Virus record (IMG/VR): IMGVR_UViG_2695420653_000006
Span: 1-26,009 of that record
Source: a virus
Taxonomy: Duplodnaviria; Heunggongvirae; Uroviricota; Caudoviricetes
DNA length: 26,009 nt
Reading direction: 5' to 3' (one strand)
Both the position numbers and the translations under genes were made by a program. Under the pieces are notes generated by a model. That model saw only the letters and a program-made list of their open reading frames with translations, ran no database searches and had not been told where the DNA came from. Positions 20,174 through 25,001 of this stretch are shown one piece after another; position 1 is the stretch's first letter; every line of letters starts with the position of its first letter.

Positions 20174-20659
20174 TTATCTGATGTTACTGCTACTGTTGCA
20201 TGTGACTGTATTTCCAAACCCTGAATTGCAGTTTGTGTAAGTGTCAACTCGTGTTGGATAGGGTTGAGTTATAACAGGCTGTCTCGCTTTTTGCTCGATC
20301 GCTTGCATTGTGTTTACAGCCTGATAATTCAATAAAGCCTGCTGGAATGCTTGGCTTTGTGCTATTTGTTGTGCTTGTTCTTGGCTTTGTAATTGAACAT
20401 AAAGATTCTGAAGCTCAAGTCTTGCCTGTGCGTCACTTATCTTGCCTTCATCGACACCTTGCCCGAGCATCTTTGCAGCAAGGACATACAGTTTAGGTGT
20501 TGGTGCTGATGCCATGCGTGAGTCGTTCTTCACACTGGCATCAAGGCAATTAGCCATATCGCTAAGCTTTTGATAGCGTTGTTCGCAACTTGCTTGATAG
20601 TCACTTACTTTTGCGCATCCAACCAGCAGAAGCGGGATAATTAACAGTGATTTTTTCAT
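20174..20659 (-). CDS. Predicted lipoprotein (161 aa), candidate superinfection-exclusion/moron gene in the sieA position
   Basis: ATG at 20659 preceded by AAGGAGAG; signal peptide with lipobox MKKSLLIIPLLLVGC; Q-rich helical middle; C-terminal Cys pair (TNCNSGFGNTVTC). The upstream in-frame start at 20695 has no RBS. No family recognised. Confidence 0.65.
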   Translation of the reverse strand: MKKSLLIIPLLLVGCAKVSDYQASCEQRYQKLSDMANCLDASVKNDSRMASAPTPKLYVLAAKMLGQGVDEGKISDAQARLELQNLYVQLQSQEQAQQIAQSQAFQQALLNYQAVNTMQAIEQKARQPVITQPYPTRVDTYTNCNSGFGNTVTCNSSSNIR

Positions 20660-20729
20660 ATGGTTAACTCTCCTTAGTTTTTCACAGGATATCATGAAGG
20701 CAATGCCATTTTAGCCGGAAGCTAGATTT

Positions 20730-20999
20730 CTATGTTTCCTTTTTATTATTGCTATACATGGTCTTAAGCGTTTCAAAAACCATTTTCTTAACCATATCAG
20801 ATTGTTGTTCTGCCATACGCTCTGCATCGTCAATGTAAACTGATACAGAGCTTTGTTTAGCCAATGATTCTTCAATCGCTGCAATTATCTCTGAGTTCAG
20901 CGACCTGTTATTCATCTTCGCACGCTGTTTAATTTTCGCGTGAAGTTCATGCGGAAGTCTCAAGTGAAACTGCGCCTCGTCGTATTTGCTGTACATCAT
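20730..20999 (-). CDS. mnt: Mnt-like ribbon-helix-helix repressor (Arc/MetJ superfamily)
   Basis: Translation from Met at 20999 (MMYSKYDEAQFHLRLPHELHAKIKQRAKMNNRSLNSEIIAAIEESLAKQSSVSVYIDDAERMAEQQSDMVKKMVFETLKTMY...) aligns with P22 Mnt (…NGRSMNSELLQIVQDAL…DAERLADEQSELVKKMVFDTLK…) from memory; GAGG SD upstream. Confidence 0.8.
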   Translation of the reverse strand: MMYSKYDEAQFHLRLPHELHAKIKQRAKMNNRSLNSEIIAAIEESLAKQSSVSVYIDDAERMAEQQSDMVKKMVFETLKTMYSNNKKET

Positions 21000-21127
21000 T
21001 GATGCCTCACCAGTTGGGTGGAATGGCATCGTAACCTACTGGATAAATACTCAATAGTACCATTTCGGTATGCAATCACATCATGGTTGCATCATATCAT
21101 TCGTCTGGAGCAATGAAATGTCAGATA

Positions 21128-21628
21128 TCACCTACTCAACAGATGGTCAGCAACCATGTTTGCTGCCTTATAAGCTATAGCAGCTTCATCAATGGTGTTG
21201 AATCTCCCAAGGGTTATGTTTTTACCTGAGACATTTATCTGAGCTTGCCATTGATTTCTGGCTTGACAGAAAGTTACCCCCTTGATTCCAGCATTGCTAT
21301 TTCGAGGTCCGACATTTAATGCATTTACGACTCTGCTGACATCCCTAAGGTTTGAGATTGCGTTATTTCTTCTGTTTCTATCAATGTGGTCAATCTCTTG
21401 TTTTGGCCATTCGCCATATACATACAGCCAGGCAAGTCTATGTGCAAAATATCTTACGCCATCAATATTAATTGCGTTATATCCATAAGAAATTGTGCCA
21501 GCAACTTTCCCAACAGCACCTCTGGCGCTTAATTTCTTTTTCCAAGTGAAAATTCCTGTTTCTTTATTGTAATCGAGAACCTCCATAAGGCGCTCCCGAG
21601 TTACTACCTCGTGACGTCTCTTACTCAT
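21128..21628 (-). CDS. HNH endonuclease with AP2-type DNA-binding domain (free-standing homing-endonuclease-like)
   Basis: Translation from ATG 21628 (SD GGAG): HNH motif region [18 protein letters not shown] followed by an AP2-like domain ([40 protein letters not shown]); AT-rich codon usage. Confidence 0.75.
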
Positions 21629-21641
21629 TATTTTCTCCGGA

Positions 21642-23486
21642 ATGTTTATTATGCCAGAACAATTATACAACGTTGTTGTTTCACAACCAAGTCAGTTATT
21701 TACTTTAGCTCGCTCGTTTAAAGCAAATGCCAATGGCAAAATTTATATCGGTAAAATTGACACTGACCCTGTAAATCCTGAAAACCAGATTCAGGTTTAT
21801 GTGGAAAACGAAGACGGCTCTCATGTTCCTGTATCGCAACCAATCATCATTAATGCTGCTGGTTACCCTGTATATAACGGACAGATTGCCAAGTTCGTAA
21901 CTGTGCAAGGCCATTCTATGGCTGTTTATGATGCATATGGTGCGCAGCAGTTCTATTTTCCGAATGTGTTAAAATATGACCCAGATCAGGCATATTATCG
22001 TGCTGAAAAAGACATTAAAAGATCTGGCGCTATCGAAACAAAAATACAAGACGCTATTAATTCATCCGTCTCAGGTCAGACGGTGTTAACAATTAATGAA
22101 GATGAGGTTGTTGATTCTATTAACAATGATTATGGTGTGGAAATCGATGCTAGAAGGGGAAGAGTTTTTAATAGAGATGGTGTCCAGTTATCAACATACA
22201 CAAATCCGAGGAATAGATTTGTTATAGGTCAAGAGTATTTAAATTATGTTACAAATAAACTTATTAACGGTGACGGAGTAACTTCAGATAAAAAAACATA
22301 TATTTTATGGTCTGGAGACTCCACTATAGTTGGTGTAAACTCTGAGTCATGGCCTCCAGCCACTATCGCTGATTTTTATGCAAAAAGGTATGGAATTATT
22401 GATGTAAAAAATACATCGTTAGGTCATTCAGGTAAAACTCTATACGAATGGGGTAATTGGTATATTGATCAGGAATGGTCTGTTTTTTCTGCTGCTGATT
22501 TGATTGTTTTACGATGGGGAATTAACGATCCATATTATGGTTATACATTGGATCAAGTAAAAGACGCATTAGATAGAGGTCTTTCCAAGTTACGAAATAA
22601 CAAATCAGTTTCCCAGCAATCAATTATTATCATGTCCCCAAACTCAACATCAGACACACCAAACGGACGTGATGAAAAATGGTATGAACAGTTAACAGCC
22701 GTGCTTAGAGCTAAAGCTAAAAAATATAAGTGCATGTTTTTTGACACTTACGGTATGTGGCAGGATTCCAGAGGCGCAGCAGGTAACTGGCTTGATAATC
22801 CATATGGGGATGGTCGCGGAATTCATCCAAATTATGTTTTTAGCGCCCAAATTCACCATGAGTTACTTGATTACATATATGGCCCATGCAAAGTAGTAAA
22901 TGGAAGTTCTAATTTATTTTCTAACAATGGTTCATCTTTGCAATTTGTTGGTAGTTCATATCCACCAAATACGTTTCATATGGGGACTTCATGGTGGAGA
23001 ACAAATCCTGATGATTCTTCTTGGCCTCTTGATGGTGTTATTCAGGTCGATAGATTTGTTGATGGAGTAGTGTTGCAAAAATTATATGGATATATATCTG
23101 AAAGTAGCAGAGTGTGTTTTACTCGCATAGGAAGGATAAGTGAGAACACATGGTCACAGTGGCGTGGTAAGCAATATGAAATATCTGGCCTGTTACAAAA
23201 TGGATGGGTTATAGGAGAATCAAGGAAAGGGACATACCAAAAATCTCTGGATGGTATTATAAATATAAATTGCGTTTTAACTGGAGGGGCAACTTCTGTT
23301 GGAACGGTTATAATGAATCTTCCTTCAGGGTTCAGGCCAGAAAAAGATATATCTTATATACCTTGTGGAACAAACAATGCTATAGCACTGATCAATATTT
23401 CGGCTAACGGAAATGTTACAATTCAATCATTTCCGTCAGGTTCTGTTCTTACTATAGCAACATCATTCCCATCAATGGTTGATTGA
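21642..23486 (+). CDS. Tailspike protein: P22-type head-binding N-domain fused to an SGNH/GDSL-hydrolase (esterase) receptor-binding domain
   Basis: Residues about 20-115 match the conserved P22 gp9 head-binding domain ([38 protein letters not shown]...[15 protein letters not shown]...NVLKYDPDQ). Downstream, SGNH blocks in canonical order: GDS ([11 protein letters not shown], Ser227 codon near 22320), G block (LGHSG), GxND (LRWGINDP), DxxH (DGRGIHPN). Strongly AT-rich after the N-domain. Confidence 0.85.
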
Positions 23487-23549
23487 TAATATTTATTATT
23501 TTGGTTCTTGTATTACAAATAAATACACCATAACAATAAACATAAGAAG

Positions 23550-23583
23550 CACAAAGCTTTGCACTGGATTGCAAGGCTTTGTG
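23550..23583. terminator. Long hairpin between convergent tailspike and integrase genes (putative bidirectional terminator)
   Basis: 14-bp stem (one G-U) CACAAAGCTTTGCA / TGCAAGGCTTTGTG with 6-nt loop; T-rich flank on the minus-strand side. Confidence 0.5.
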
Positions 23584-23607
23584 TCATTCGATAGTTGTTA
23601 ATGTCGC

Positions 23608-24765
23608 TCACTCCACCTTTTCATCAAGCCAGTCCGCCCACCACTGCATCATTTCTCTGCGCTTATCGAGATACTGAGCATGGTTGTAAATACCGCGCAC
23701 AGATCCACCGTTGGCATGTGCAAGTTGCACTTCAATAGCGTCAGCAGGCCATTCGTGCTCGTTCATAATCGTGCTGAATTCATGCCTGAATCCGTGACCG
23801 CTTTCCAGACCCTCATAGCCGATTTGTTTGATCACAAGCAATACCGCGTTCTCGCAGATTGGCTTCTTCTTATCGTTACGCCCGGCAAAAACAAACTCTG
23901 ATACTGGTTTGGTGATGGAGCTTAACGTAGTGAGAAGTTCAACCACCTGGTCTGACATCGGGACCACATGAATTTTGCGTCCCTTCATCACACTGGCGTC
24001 GATGGTGATAATCCTGTTTTCAAAATCGACGTTCTTCCATTGCATGGAACGAAGCTCTTTTGTTCTGAGGGCTGTGTAGCGTAAAACTTTGGTCGCAATG
24101 AGCGATACGATACTTCCTGAAAATGTTGCCAGTGCTTTGTTGAATGCAGGGATCTGGTCTGCAGGCAGAAACGGGAAGTTTTTCTTGCGGTATCCCTTCA
24201 TTGCGTCAGCAAGGTCAGGTGCCGGGTTATATTTAGCTCTGCCGGTGACAATAGCGTAACGGAAAACCTCGCCGCATCTTCTGCGTGCTTTGTTGGCTCG
24301 CTCCATTGCACCGCGATCTTCGAATCTGCGGATTACTTCCAGCAGTTGCATCGGCTCAATATCCTGAATCTCAAGACCGCCGATGATGGGTAAAATGTCG
24401 TCATCAAACATTTTGGCAAGTTCAGTCGCATATCCTACTGACCAGACTTGCTTCTTGTGCTCGTACCATTCCTTGTAAATGGCGCTAAAGGAATTGTTGT
24501 TAGACGAAGCCTTTTTCGCTTTTACCGGATCGATGCCAACCGAGATGTCTTTCCTCGCGGTCCATGCTTTATCTCTTGCCTCCTGCAAAGTCATTAGCGG
24601 ATATTTTCCTACGGTCAGGATTTTCTCCTTACCGTCAATCTTGTAGCGAAGCTGCCATACCTTTTTCCCGGATACAGGGACATAAAGGTACAGGCCATTA
24701 CCATCGAGAAGGCGGTATGGTTTTTCTTTCGGCTTTGCTGCTTCAATCTGCTTAACGGTGAGCAT
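23608..24765 (-). CDS. intS: Tyrosine integrase, P4-family, argW-targeting type (IntS-like)
   Basis: 385 aa from ATG 24765 (MLTVKQIEAAKPKEKPYRLLDGNGLYLYV... arm-binding N-domain); catalytic R…HxxR…Y signature (…RTKELRS…HGFRHEF…RGIYNHAQY); adjacent to the 3' end of argW. ORF track starts at an upstream GTG (24801) that I consider less likely. Confidence 0.88.
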   Translation of the reverse strand: MLTVKQIEAAKPKEKPYRLLDGNGLYLYVPVSGKKVWQLRYKIDGKEKILTVGKYPLMTLQEARDKAWTARKDISVGIDPVKAKKASSNNNSFSAIYKEWYEHKKQVWSVGYATELAKMFDDDILPIIGGLEIQDIEPMQLLEVIRRFEDRGAMERANKARRRCGEVFRYAIVTGRAKYNPAPDLADAMKGYRKKNFPFLPADQIPAFNKALATFSGSIVSLIATKVLRYTALRTKELRSMQWKNVDFENRIITIDASVMKGRKIHVVPMSDQVVELLTTLSSITKPVSEFVFAGRNDKKKPICENAVLLVIKQIGYEGLESGHGFRHEFSTIMNEHEWPADAIEVQLAHANGGSVRGIYNHAQYLDKRREMMQWWADWLDEKVE

Positions 24766-24926
24766 GGGTAAAAATCCGGTGGGTAAAATTATTTTATCCA
24801 CTTTTTACCCGTCATGGAGTGCGGCTGTCAACGATCTGAAGCGAACCATGACGAACTGTGAATCTACGGAAGGCTTGATATTCAGGGGATTTTGCGGACT
24901 AGCACGGATGGTAGCGAACTGATAAA

Positions 24927-25001
24927 TGGTGTCCCCTGCAGGAATCGAACCTGCAATTAGCCCTTAGGAGGGGCTCGTTATATCCATTTAACTAAGAGGA
25001 C
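24927..25001 (-). tRNA. argW: tRNA-Arg (anticodon CCU)
   Basis: Minus-strand sequence GTCCTCTTAGTTAAATGGATATAACGAGCCCCTCCTAAGGGCTAATTGCAGGTTCGATTCCTGCAGGGGACACCA folds as a cloverleaf: 7-bp acceptor stem, T-loop GGTTCGATTCC, anticodon loop CCUCCUAAG with CCU at 34-36, encoded CCA. Confidence 0.92.

Follow-up and report, generated by a model that had tools for sequence, protein, structure and literature searches.

The tailspikes of the P22 family are the reference model for podophages that cut their way through the O-antigen until the tail needle touches the membrane, and the receptor-binding parts of the P22, Sf6 and HK620 spikes are right-handed beta-helices. The spike of P22, an endorhamnosidase by its molecule name, and that of CUS-3, annotated as an endosialidase, cleave the glycan itself. 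The tailspike gene described here lies in a stretch of viral DNA of 26,009 nucleotides (nt; IMG/VR record IMGVR_UViG_2695420653_000006, positions 1 to 26,009), hereafter called the window. Its product shares with the spikes of P22 (gp9), Sf6 (gp14), HK620 (gp9) and CUS-3 the head-binding domain, the gene position beside the integrase and the tail hub partners, whereas its receptor-binding part consists of a predicted SGNH/GDSL esterase domain and a beta-sandwich knob. The protein is likely to serve as tailspike to a temperate, P22-like podophage whose prophage occupies the tRNA-Arg(CCU)/yfdC site.

Spikes carrying esterases have been described in several other phages. The gp63.1 protein of phage G7C is an O-antigen deacetylase essential for infection, and the spikes of the Pectobacterium phages PP99 and Possum deacetylate polysaccharide (PMC10743462), while those of Moo19 and B2 hydrolyse 4-nitrophenyl acetate (PMC11654681). 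SGNH domains are also among the commonest enzymatic domains of the receptor-binding proteins (RBPs) of Klebsiella prophages, two of which are active on p-nitrophenyl acetate (PMC13123978). N4-like and T7-like phages and temperate phages of Klebsiella are established carriers of esterase spikes; the principle is not new, and the fusion is not surprising either, since receptor-binding proteins are modular and many esterase spikes are known. In the window protein, a P22-type adaptor is joined to a neck-SGNH-knob cassette that is so far uncharacterised and whose block V is non-canonical. A full-text literature search, in which few subscription papers were covered, yielded no description of a P22-type head-binding domain fused to an SGNH/GDSL esterase.

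Domain organisation and predicted structure

The initial annotation, made from the letters of the window alone, had assigned the first ~115 amino acids (aa) to the P22-type head-binding domain, and this assignment holds. Besides the match to PF09008 (Table 1), aa 7-129 match Sf6 gp14 at E=3e-61, the PDB matches (Sf6 gp14 and P22 gp9) being restricted to the head-binding part, and aa 1-116 are 100% identical to the tailspike of phage Kapi1.

The rest of the protein had been predicted not to be a beta-helix of the gp9 type, and structure prediction, the very test by which the initial annotation had proposed to challenge that claim, bears it out. An AlphaFold2 model of the monomer, built with an alignment of 119 homologues of aa 117-614, reached a mean predicted local distance difference test score (pLDDT) of 91.7 and a predicted template modelling score of 0.81, and consists of a sparsely structured neck, a core of beta-alpha-beta type at aa ~219-416 and a C-terminal domain that is all-beta. 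The core shows the three-layer alpha/beta/alpha fold of SGNH hydrolases, and no beta-helix is found in the model or among its top structure matches; the receptor-binding part is not a gp9-type beta-helix glycanase. At the sequence level, PF13472 (Lipase_GDSL_2) is recognised over aa 225-397 (E=2.6e-14, 54.6 bits against a cutoff of 32.9). Matches among the viral models of BFVD include the tail spikes of Pectobacterium PP99 and Possum.

The last ~190 residues, which had been described as rich in Ser, Gly and Asn, are mildly enriched in Ser (13.2%) and Gly (10.5%) but not in Asn (7.4%), the whole protein containing 9.3%, 8.6% and 7.5%, respectively; moreover, this region is a confidently folded beta domain and not low-complexity sequence. 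Searched separately, the C-terminal domain and the linker received no Pfam, NCBIfam or PDB sequence assignment. By its fold, however, the C-terminal domain resembles the heads or knobs of trimeric phage receptor-binding structures, namely Gp15 of the Listeria phage PSA (6r5w) and the needle knob of the Pseudomonas phage Pa223 (9nxp), with only 9-19% sequence identity; these form the tips of a siphophage RBP or of a tail needle and do not stand behind an esterase. The earlier suggestion of a carbohydrate-binding or trimerisation module is consistent with this likeness, and the model points to a beta-sandwich knob at the distal end, with probable roles in binding the polysaccharide and in keeping the trimer together. 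The spike itself is presumably trimeric, to judge from its head-binding domain and from its trimeric structural relatives.

The neck of the window protein alone has no PDB or Pfam match. The family profile of this segment matches the GAxGDG cap region of the Sf6 tailspike protein (TSP), phi92 gp150, CBA120 TSP1 and a beta-1,3-glucanase, a region which in classical tailspikes forms the N-terminal cap ahead of the beta-helix. The motif is degenerate in the window protein, and several members of the cassette family still score PF12708 over the neck, which may perhaps be the remnant of a beta-helix spike.

Active site and the non-canonical block V

Residue conservation was counted over the same 119 homologues, whose identity goes down to about 25%. 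For the profile-profile alignment (hhalign), Escherichia coli TesA served as the reference, with its sequence taken from MG1655 tesA; its catalytic residues are S10, G44, N73, D154 and H157. The initial annotation had read four SGNH blocks in canonical order. Their positions stand, as do the motifs GDS, LGHSG and GIND of the first three (Table 1), G264 of the second pairing with TesA Gly44. The DxxH motif does not stand, D390 and H395 being five residues apart in DGRGIHPN (aa 390-397). In this block, H395 is kept in 118/119 homologues, D385 in 117, R392 in 114 and D390 in 107, and H395 pairs with TesA H157. The position of the catalytic Asp154 of TesA, three residues before the His (His-3), aligns with Arg392, and among the 118 homologues whose alignment extends over block V not one has an acid there, which speaks against D390 as the acid of a DxxH triad.

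D390 lies at His-5, within PYGDG (aa 387-391), a five-residue insertion specific to the family, whose block V signature reads [WLY][ML]D[DN]P[YF]xDGR[GA]IHP. The homologues without D390, roughly 10%, retain D338 and E349, and all but one retain D385; on this comparison D390 is the least secure candidate acid. Both D338 and E349 belong to an invariant segment, also specific to the family; in the alignment it falls where TesA has the loop that follows strand 4, and it provides candidate active-site or substrate-binding residues. Since Arg392 occupies the canonical acid position, catalysis would depend on a Ser-His dyad or on another acid (D385, D390, D338 or E349). From the fold match and the profile alignment with TesA, S227, H395 and N295 would be expected to be juxtaposed in three dimensions.

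The conserved Arg in place of the canonical block V Asp could also be understood if the SGNH domain were a carbohydrate-binding scaffold, catalytically weak or dead, and the spike a non-enzymatic adhesin; an active site of a CE2 esterase that also serves non-catalytic binding is, by its title, the subject of PMC2661963. Such a role is unlikely, in our opinion, for the nucleophile, G261 and N295 of the oxyanion hole and the His are kept in 116-118/119 homologues, the pattern expected under selection for catalysis. Furthermore, active SGNH esterases devoid of the block V acid are documented: the CE2 esterases and SsEst of Streptomyces work with a Ser-His dyad, and AlgX and AlgJ use DxH (PMC9487903). 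In view of these active enzymes with deviating blocks V, the missing DxxH does not exclude the window protein from the SGNH superfamily, but defines a variant of it, and a catalytic domain remains the preferred interpretation.

Table 1. Coordinates of the tailspike gene, its domains and motifs, and neighbouring features in the window
Feature	Position	Strand	Basis or remarks
Tailspike gene	21642..23486	+	Intact open reading frame of 614 aa (open reading frame listing)
P22-type head-binding domain, aa 4-116	21651..21989	+	PF09008, E=1.9e-64; ends in conserved KYDPDQ
Neck/linker, aa 117-218	21990..22295	+	First part of the transferable cassette; few secondary-structure elements, pLDDT 74-95
SGNH/GDSL hydrolase domain, aa ~219-416	22296..22889	+	Pfam PF13472 Lipase_GDSL_2
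Block I, GDS 225-227, codon of the nucleophile Ser227	22320..22322	+	Conserved in 118/119; aligns with TesA Ser10
Block II, G261-H-S-G264 (LGHSG 260-264), oxyanion-hole Gly	22422..22433	+	G261 in 116/119, G264 in 104/119
Block III, G293-I-N295-D296, oxyanion-hole Asn	22518..22529	+	N295 and D296 each in 118/119; N295 aligns with TesA Asn73
Family-specific invariant segment, P333-NSTSD338...349	22638..22688	+	D338 and E349 in 119/119
Non-canonical block V, D385-N-P-Y-G-D390-G-R392-G-I-H395-P	22794..22829	+	hhalign to TesA; column conservation
C-terminal all-beta domain, aa ~425-610	22914..23471	+	pLDDT mostly 93-98; most variable part of the cassette
Cassette replaced relative to Kapi1	21990..23621	+	Receptor-binding part, spacer and last 14 nt of the integrase gene
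Mnt/Arc repressor gene	20730-21029	-	immI-like region
HNH_3 + AP2 endonuclease gene	21128..21670	-	Pfam PF13392 (E=2.5e-16) and PF00847; head-to-head with the tailspike start
Prophage integrase gene	23608..24801	-	Open reading frame; integrase Pfam domains in identical contexts; intS annotated in MDR_56
tRNA-Arg(CCU), prophage attachment locus next to yfdC	24927..25001	-	ARAGORN; same context annotated in MDR_56

Exchange of the receptor-binding cassette

The swapping of modules at the domain boundary, already suspected in the initial annotation, is strongly supported by the breakpoints relative to Kapi1 and CUS-3 and by the occurrence of one cassette on differing N-terminal domains. By blastn, the window matches Kapi1 over 21104-21989 at 97.0% identity and over 23622-24900 at 96.4%, with nothing between them. 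The first stretch covers the HNH gene and the head-binding domain and breaks off precisely where codon 116 is complete, at nt 21989; identity resumes in the 3' end of the integrase gene. Kapi1 carries a different spike, of 792 aa, and the CUS-3 tailspike is near-identical through aa 116 and unrelated after it, the KYDPDQ junction being used for module exchange in both phages, as in the window spike. A similarity of CUS-3 out to aa 230 was also considered and rejected, the pairwise alignment showing noise beyond aa 116.

The same boundary is found among the closest copies of the gene. After nt 339, those of UTAK-1 and MDR_56 are 99.4% and 99.5% identical to the window and 99.1% to each other, whereas before nt 339 the values are 84.4%, 82.0% and 90.3%, respectively, the last clustered mismatch being located at nt 323. 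The cassette copies differ by under 1% and contain no frameshifts. By megablast, the gene has matches in 1,105 of 5,426 complete E. coli genomes, nearly all over the first ~350 nt only, and the part following the N-terminal domain is matched in just three of them.

Relatives with unrelated N-termini begin to align at aa 116-126, and the same cassette sits behind at least six other kinds of virion adaptor, with N-termini of the families PF18668, PF12708, PF12571, PF03903, PF18454 and PF03906. The combination of head-binding and SGNH domains occurs in at least three divergent lineages (97.5%, 78.6% and 37.9% identity), and in a fourth with a weak PF09008 match. As judged from these alignments, everything after KYDPDQ is, decisively, an exchangeable receptor-binding cassette.

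Of the parts of the cassette, the SGNH domain is conserved best and the C-terminal domain varies most, and this divergence fits the knob as the specificity element, as expected for a specificity determinant. Sub-modules are exchanged too: the homologue P0002 has 94% identity over the SGNH domain, against 57% over the neck and 74% over the knob.

A marked shift towards AT after the N-terminal domain had likewise been reported. The shift is present but modest, GC falling by 2.5 points from 39.1% in the N-terminal domain to 36.6% after it, and GC at third codon positions from 33.6% to 24.4%. It is upstream of the gene, near 20.1 kb, that GC falls steeply, from about 51%, and that the AT-rich zone starts. 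Given the small step at the boundary and this upstream start, composition was rejected as primary evidence of transfer.

Distribution of the cassette family

Judged from co-linear homology over aa ~121-614, the neck-SGNH-knob cassette is a large uncharacterised family, defined by the block V signature and the invariant D338 and E349, all of which the window protein carries. A HMMER scan of 1.84 billion cluster representatives retrieved 941, 555 and 263 clusters at E<=1e-3, 1e-10 and 1e-30, respectively, most of which span both the SGNH and the C-terminal domains. RefSeq labels the E. coli protein 'phage tailspike protein'.

Among isolated phages, the cassette alone is found in Vibrio martha 12B12, Pseudomonas 15b and 15G, Pseudoalteromonas PY6, Stenotrophomonas CUB19, Pectobacterium PPWS2 and PPWS4 and two Caulobacter phages. 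The fibre of martha 12B12, the spikes of PPWS4 and PPWS2 and the proteins of 15b, CUB19 and PY6 belong to the same sequence family as the window spike, at 29-34% identity, but differ from it in virion adaptors and hosts. Most of these relatives span the SGNH and C-terminal domains, whereas the matches of PPWS2 and PPWS4 cover mainly the SGNH part; in BFVD, the best matches have E=6e-44 and 1e-35. No biochemical characterisation was found for the phage relatives of the cassette.

In addition, 53 genes of Lactococcus lactis phages annotated as 'neck passage structure' share the SGNH part (aa 208-416 roughly) at 26-28% identity, which suggests that dairy phages carry esterase domains on their collars or whiskers.

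Proposed function

That the spike is a receptor-modifying esterase rather than a glycan-cleaving enzyme, as the initial annotation had predicted, is supported by the GDSL_2 domain, the near-invariant catalytic residues and the lack of a beta-helix in the model. Most likely, the spike would remove acetyl groups from O-antigen or capsule in a manner comparable to gp63.1 of G7C, and we hold this to be rather probable. The analyses establish the domain architecture, the fold, the conservation of residues, the limits of the cassette and the P22-type setting of the virion genes; it is by analogy with such described systems that we infer esterase activity, a polysaccharide substrate and a role in infection. 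In the mechanism proposed, the head-binding domain would dock the spike on the gp4/gp10-type tail hub encoded by the same prophage, and the knob and the esterase groove would engage a surface polysaccharide bearing O-acetyl groups, be it O-antigen or capsule. With Ser227 as the nucleophile, His395 as the base and G261/G264 and N295 forming the oxyanion hole, the acetyl ester would be hydrolysed, so that acetyl groups would be removed and the polysaccharide backbone left uncut. Repeated binding, deacetylation and release would let the virion descend until it reaches the outer membrane, at which the needle, of the gp26 type, would trigger DNA ejection. Were the ester cleaved by this same domain a lipid or other non-polysaccharide one (lipid A acyl chains, outer-membrane phospholipids), the spike would aid in breaching the membrane instead, but such a target appears quite improbable.

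The closest functional analogue, gp63.1 (PDB 4QNL), resembles the window spike in having an SGNH esterase domain for its enzymatic part; a virion role of the window spike is suggested by its head-binding domain. Membership of the gp63.1 family was nevertheless rejected, the hhalign probability being 1% and the domains G7C_GBD (PF21988) and G7C_C (PF22245) being absent from the window protein; these are the distal domains of gp63.1, in the place of the knob of the window spike. Moreover, block V is canonical in gp63.1 (D470-T-T-H473), whereas the window family has R-G-I-H, and G7C is an N4-like lytic phage to which gp63.1 is attached through PF18668, while the window spike would be attached through the P22 head-binding domain. 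The Klebsiella prophage proteins 164_08-KL2 and 174_38-KL55 are, for their part, temperate-phage SGNH RBPs active on p-nitrophenyl acetate and proposed to deacetylate capsule (PMC13123978), but they are long tail fibres of 839 and 717 aa, with other N-termini and on a different virion type. These fibres were rejected as members of the cassette family, the GRGIHP and RWGIND signatures being absent from them and block I of 164_08 being of the GQS type; they fall into another SGNH subfamily.

Several observations weigh against an esterase spike in use on virions. Block V is non-canonical, with an Arg at the acid position, and the validated phage esterases are related to the cassette family at the superfamily level only. 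Furthermore, none of 50,697 deposited phage genomes covers at least 80% of the full protein, and no isolated phage among them carries the fusion. In complete E. coli genomes, each of the three copies belongs to a decayed prophage, the signs of decay being a partial integrase, an insertion sequence (IS) or a truncated ejection gene, and an identical protein is found in an O45 strain and in an O84 strain.

The decay of the carrier prophages and the lack of a cultured phage with the fusion would both suit an evolutionary relic, that is, a recombinant prophage chimera that never functioned on an infectious particle. This explanation seems very unlikely. In the window the gene is intact, as is the integrase, and the P22-type late region to which it belongs seems complete; five other assemblies encode exactly this protein in the same context, and its 90% cluster comprises 270 member sequences. 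Moreover, the divergent lineages that keep the head-binding and SGNH architecture, and the near-identity of cassette copies free of frameshifts, point together with this recurrence to purifying selection and repeated successful use. A functional esterase spike is the reading retained here.

As regards the substrate, UTAK-1 (L001, 5954-7789) and OkiPb01711 (L007, 7954-9789), both bovine strains, carry an identical tailspike (WP_136816299.1) in the same decayed prophage beside yedK, and are annotated as O45 and O84, respectively. The O45 repeat unit contains 2-O-acetyl-6-deoxytalose, and the gene is present in 1/30 complete O45 genomes. As the same protein occurs in O45 and O84 strains and is rare among O45 genomes, no link with a serogroup could be drawn, and the derivation of the substrate from the host serogroup was rejected. 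The sharing of the protein by the two strains would mean either that the O-antigen was switched after acquisition of the prophage or that the remnant was inherited vertically. The O-antigen clusters of UTAK-1 and OkiPb01711 (L006, L010) each contain an acetyl- or acyltransferase gene. In MDR_56 (L008, 3014-4746), the prophage occupies the same argU-yfdC site as in the window and is cut by IS1203, which truncates a DNA-transfer (ejection) gene; the tailspike open reading frame (ORF) is intact.

Gene start and genomic neighbourhood

The ORF of the tailspike contains a second ATG at 21651, probably the true start, which gives a protein of 611 aa. This form is called in the RefSeq homologues and in the five other assemblies and agrees with the annotated start of Kapi1; in the alignment with the Sf6 and P22 spikes, its beginning coincides with their residue 1. 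Scans for promoters and terminators around the gene gave nothing exceeding the shuffled expectation.

The window corresponds to the late half of a P22-like prophage. Upstream of the tailspike, PHROG matches were obtained for the large terminase, portal, coat, gp4-like adaptor, gp10-like hub and gp26-like tail needle, as well as for three ejection proteins, so named by their matches; the P22-type tail set encoded by the window is apparently complete. The ejection genes are followed by an AT-rich block on the minus strand, with a lipoprotein-like ORF, the Mnt/Arc repressor gene and the HNH_3 + AP2 endonuclease gene, and then by the tailspike. The layout around the tailspike is the same in Kapi1 and CUS-3.

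The endonuclease ORF as listed overlaps the tailspike start, the real gene probably encoding 152-166 aa according to gene calls in other assemblies. In Kapi1, the HNH endonuclease Kapi1_066 occupies the same position, beside the identical head-binding allele. A homing-type nuclease adjoining a recombination hotspot could promote the exchange of spikes.

The lipoprotein-like ORF (20174-20695, minus strand, 173 aa) has a lipoprotein-type signal (MKKSLLIIPLLLVGC); its sole match is phrog_6067, of unknown function, and it has no Pfam match. It sits in the AT-rich, moron-like block between an ejection-protein gene and the Mnt/Arc gene, and could have a role in superinfection exclusion or in modifying the surface.

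On the other side, 121 bp (23487-23607) separate the tailspike stop from the integrase gene, and the ORF listing of the window contains no gtr or oac O-antigen conversion genes between them; many P22-like phages carry such genes near this position.

Implications

It is conceivable, although rather doubtful at present, that the neck-SGNH-knob cassette constitutes a large uncharacterised class of receptor-binding enzymes with a re-wired SGNH active site, and that P22-type entry can proceed on receptor modification alone. The re-wiring would consist of the Arg at the position of the triad acid, beside the five-residue insertion and the invariant D338 and E349. This conserved Arg might reflect a substrate out of the ordinary, for example an acidic sugar with O-acetyl groups, or an SGNH catalytic arrangement not yet described, and the variant site with no acid at His-3 poses a small question for SGNH enzymology.

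A natural esterase spike of the P22 type would moreover be a tractable system in which to ask whether deacetylation alone can drive the virion to the membrane and to needle-dependent ejection, because phages of the P22, Sf6 and Kapi1 type are easily engineered and KYDPDQ offers a ready-made splice site. Finally, the cassette moves between adaptors of podo-, myo- and sipho-type virions, and the rules of its specificity matter for the prediction of host range from prophage sequence and for the design of chimeric spikes.

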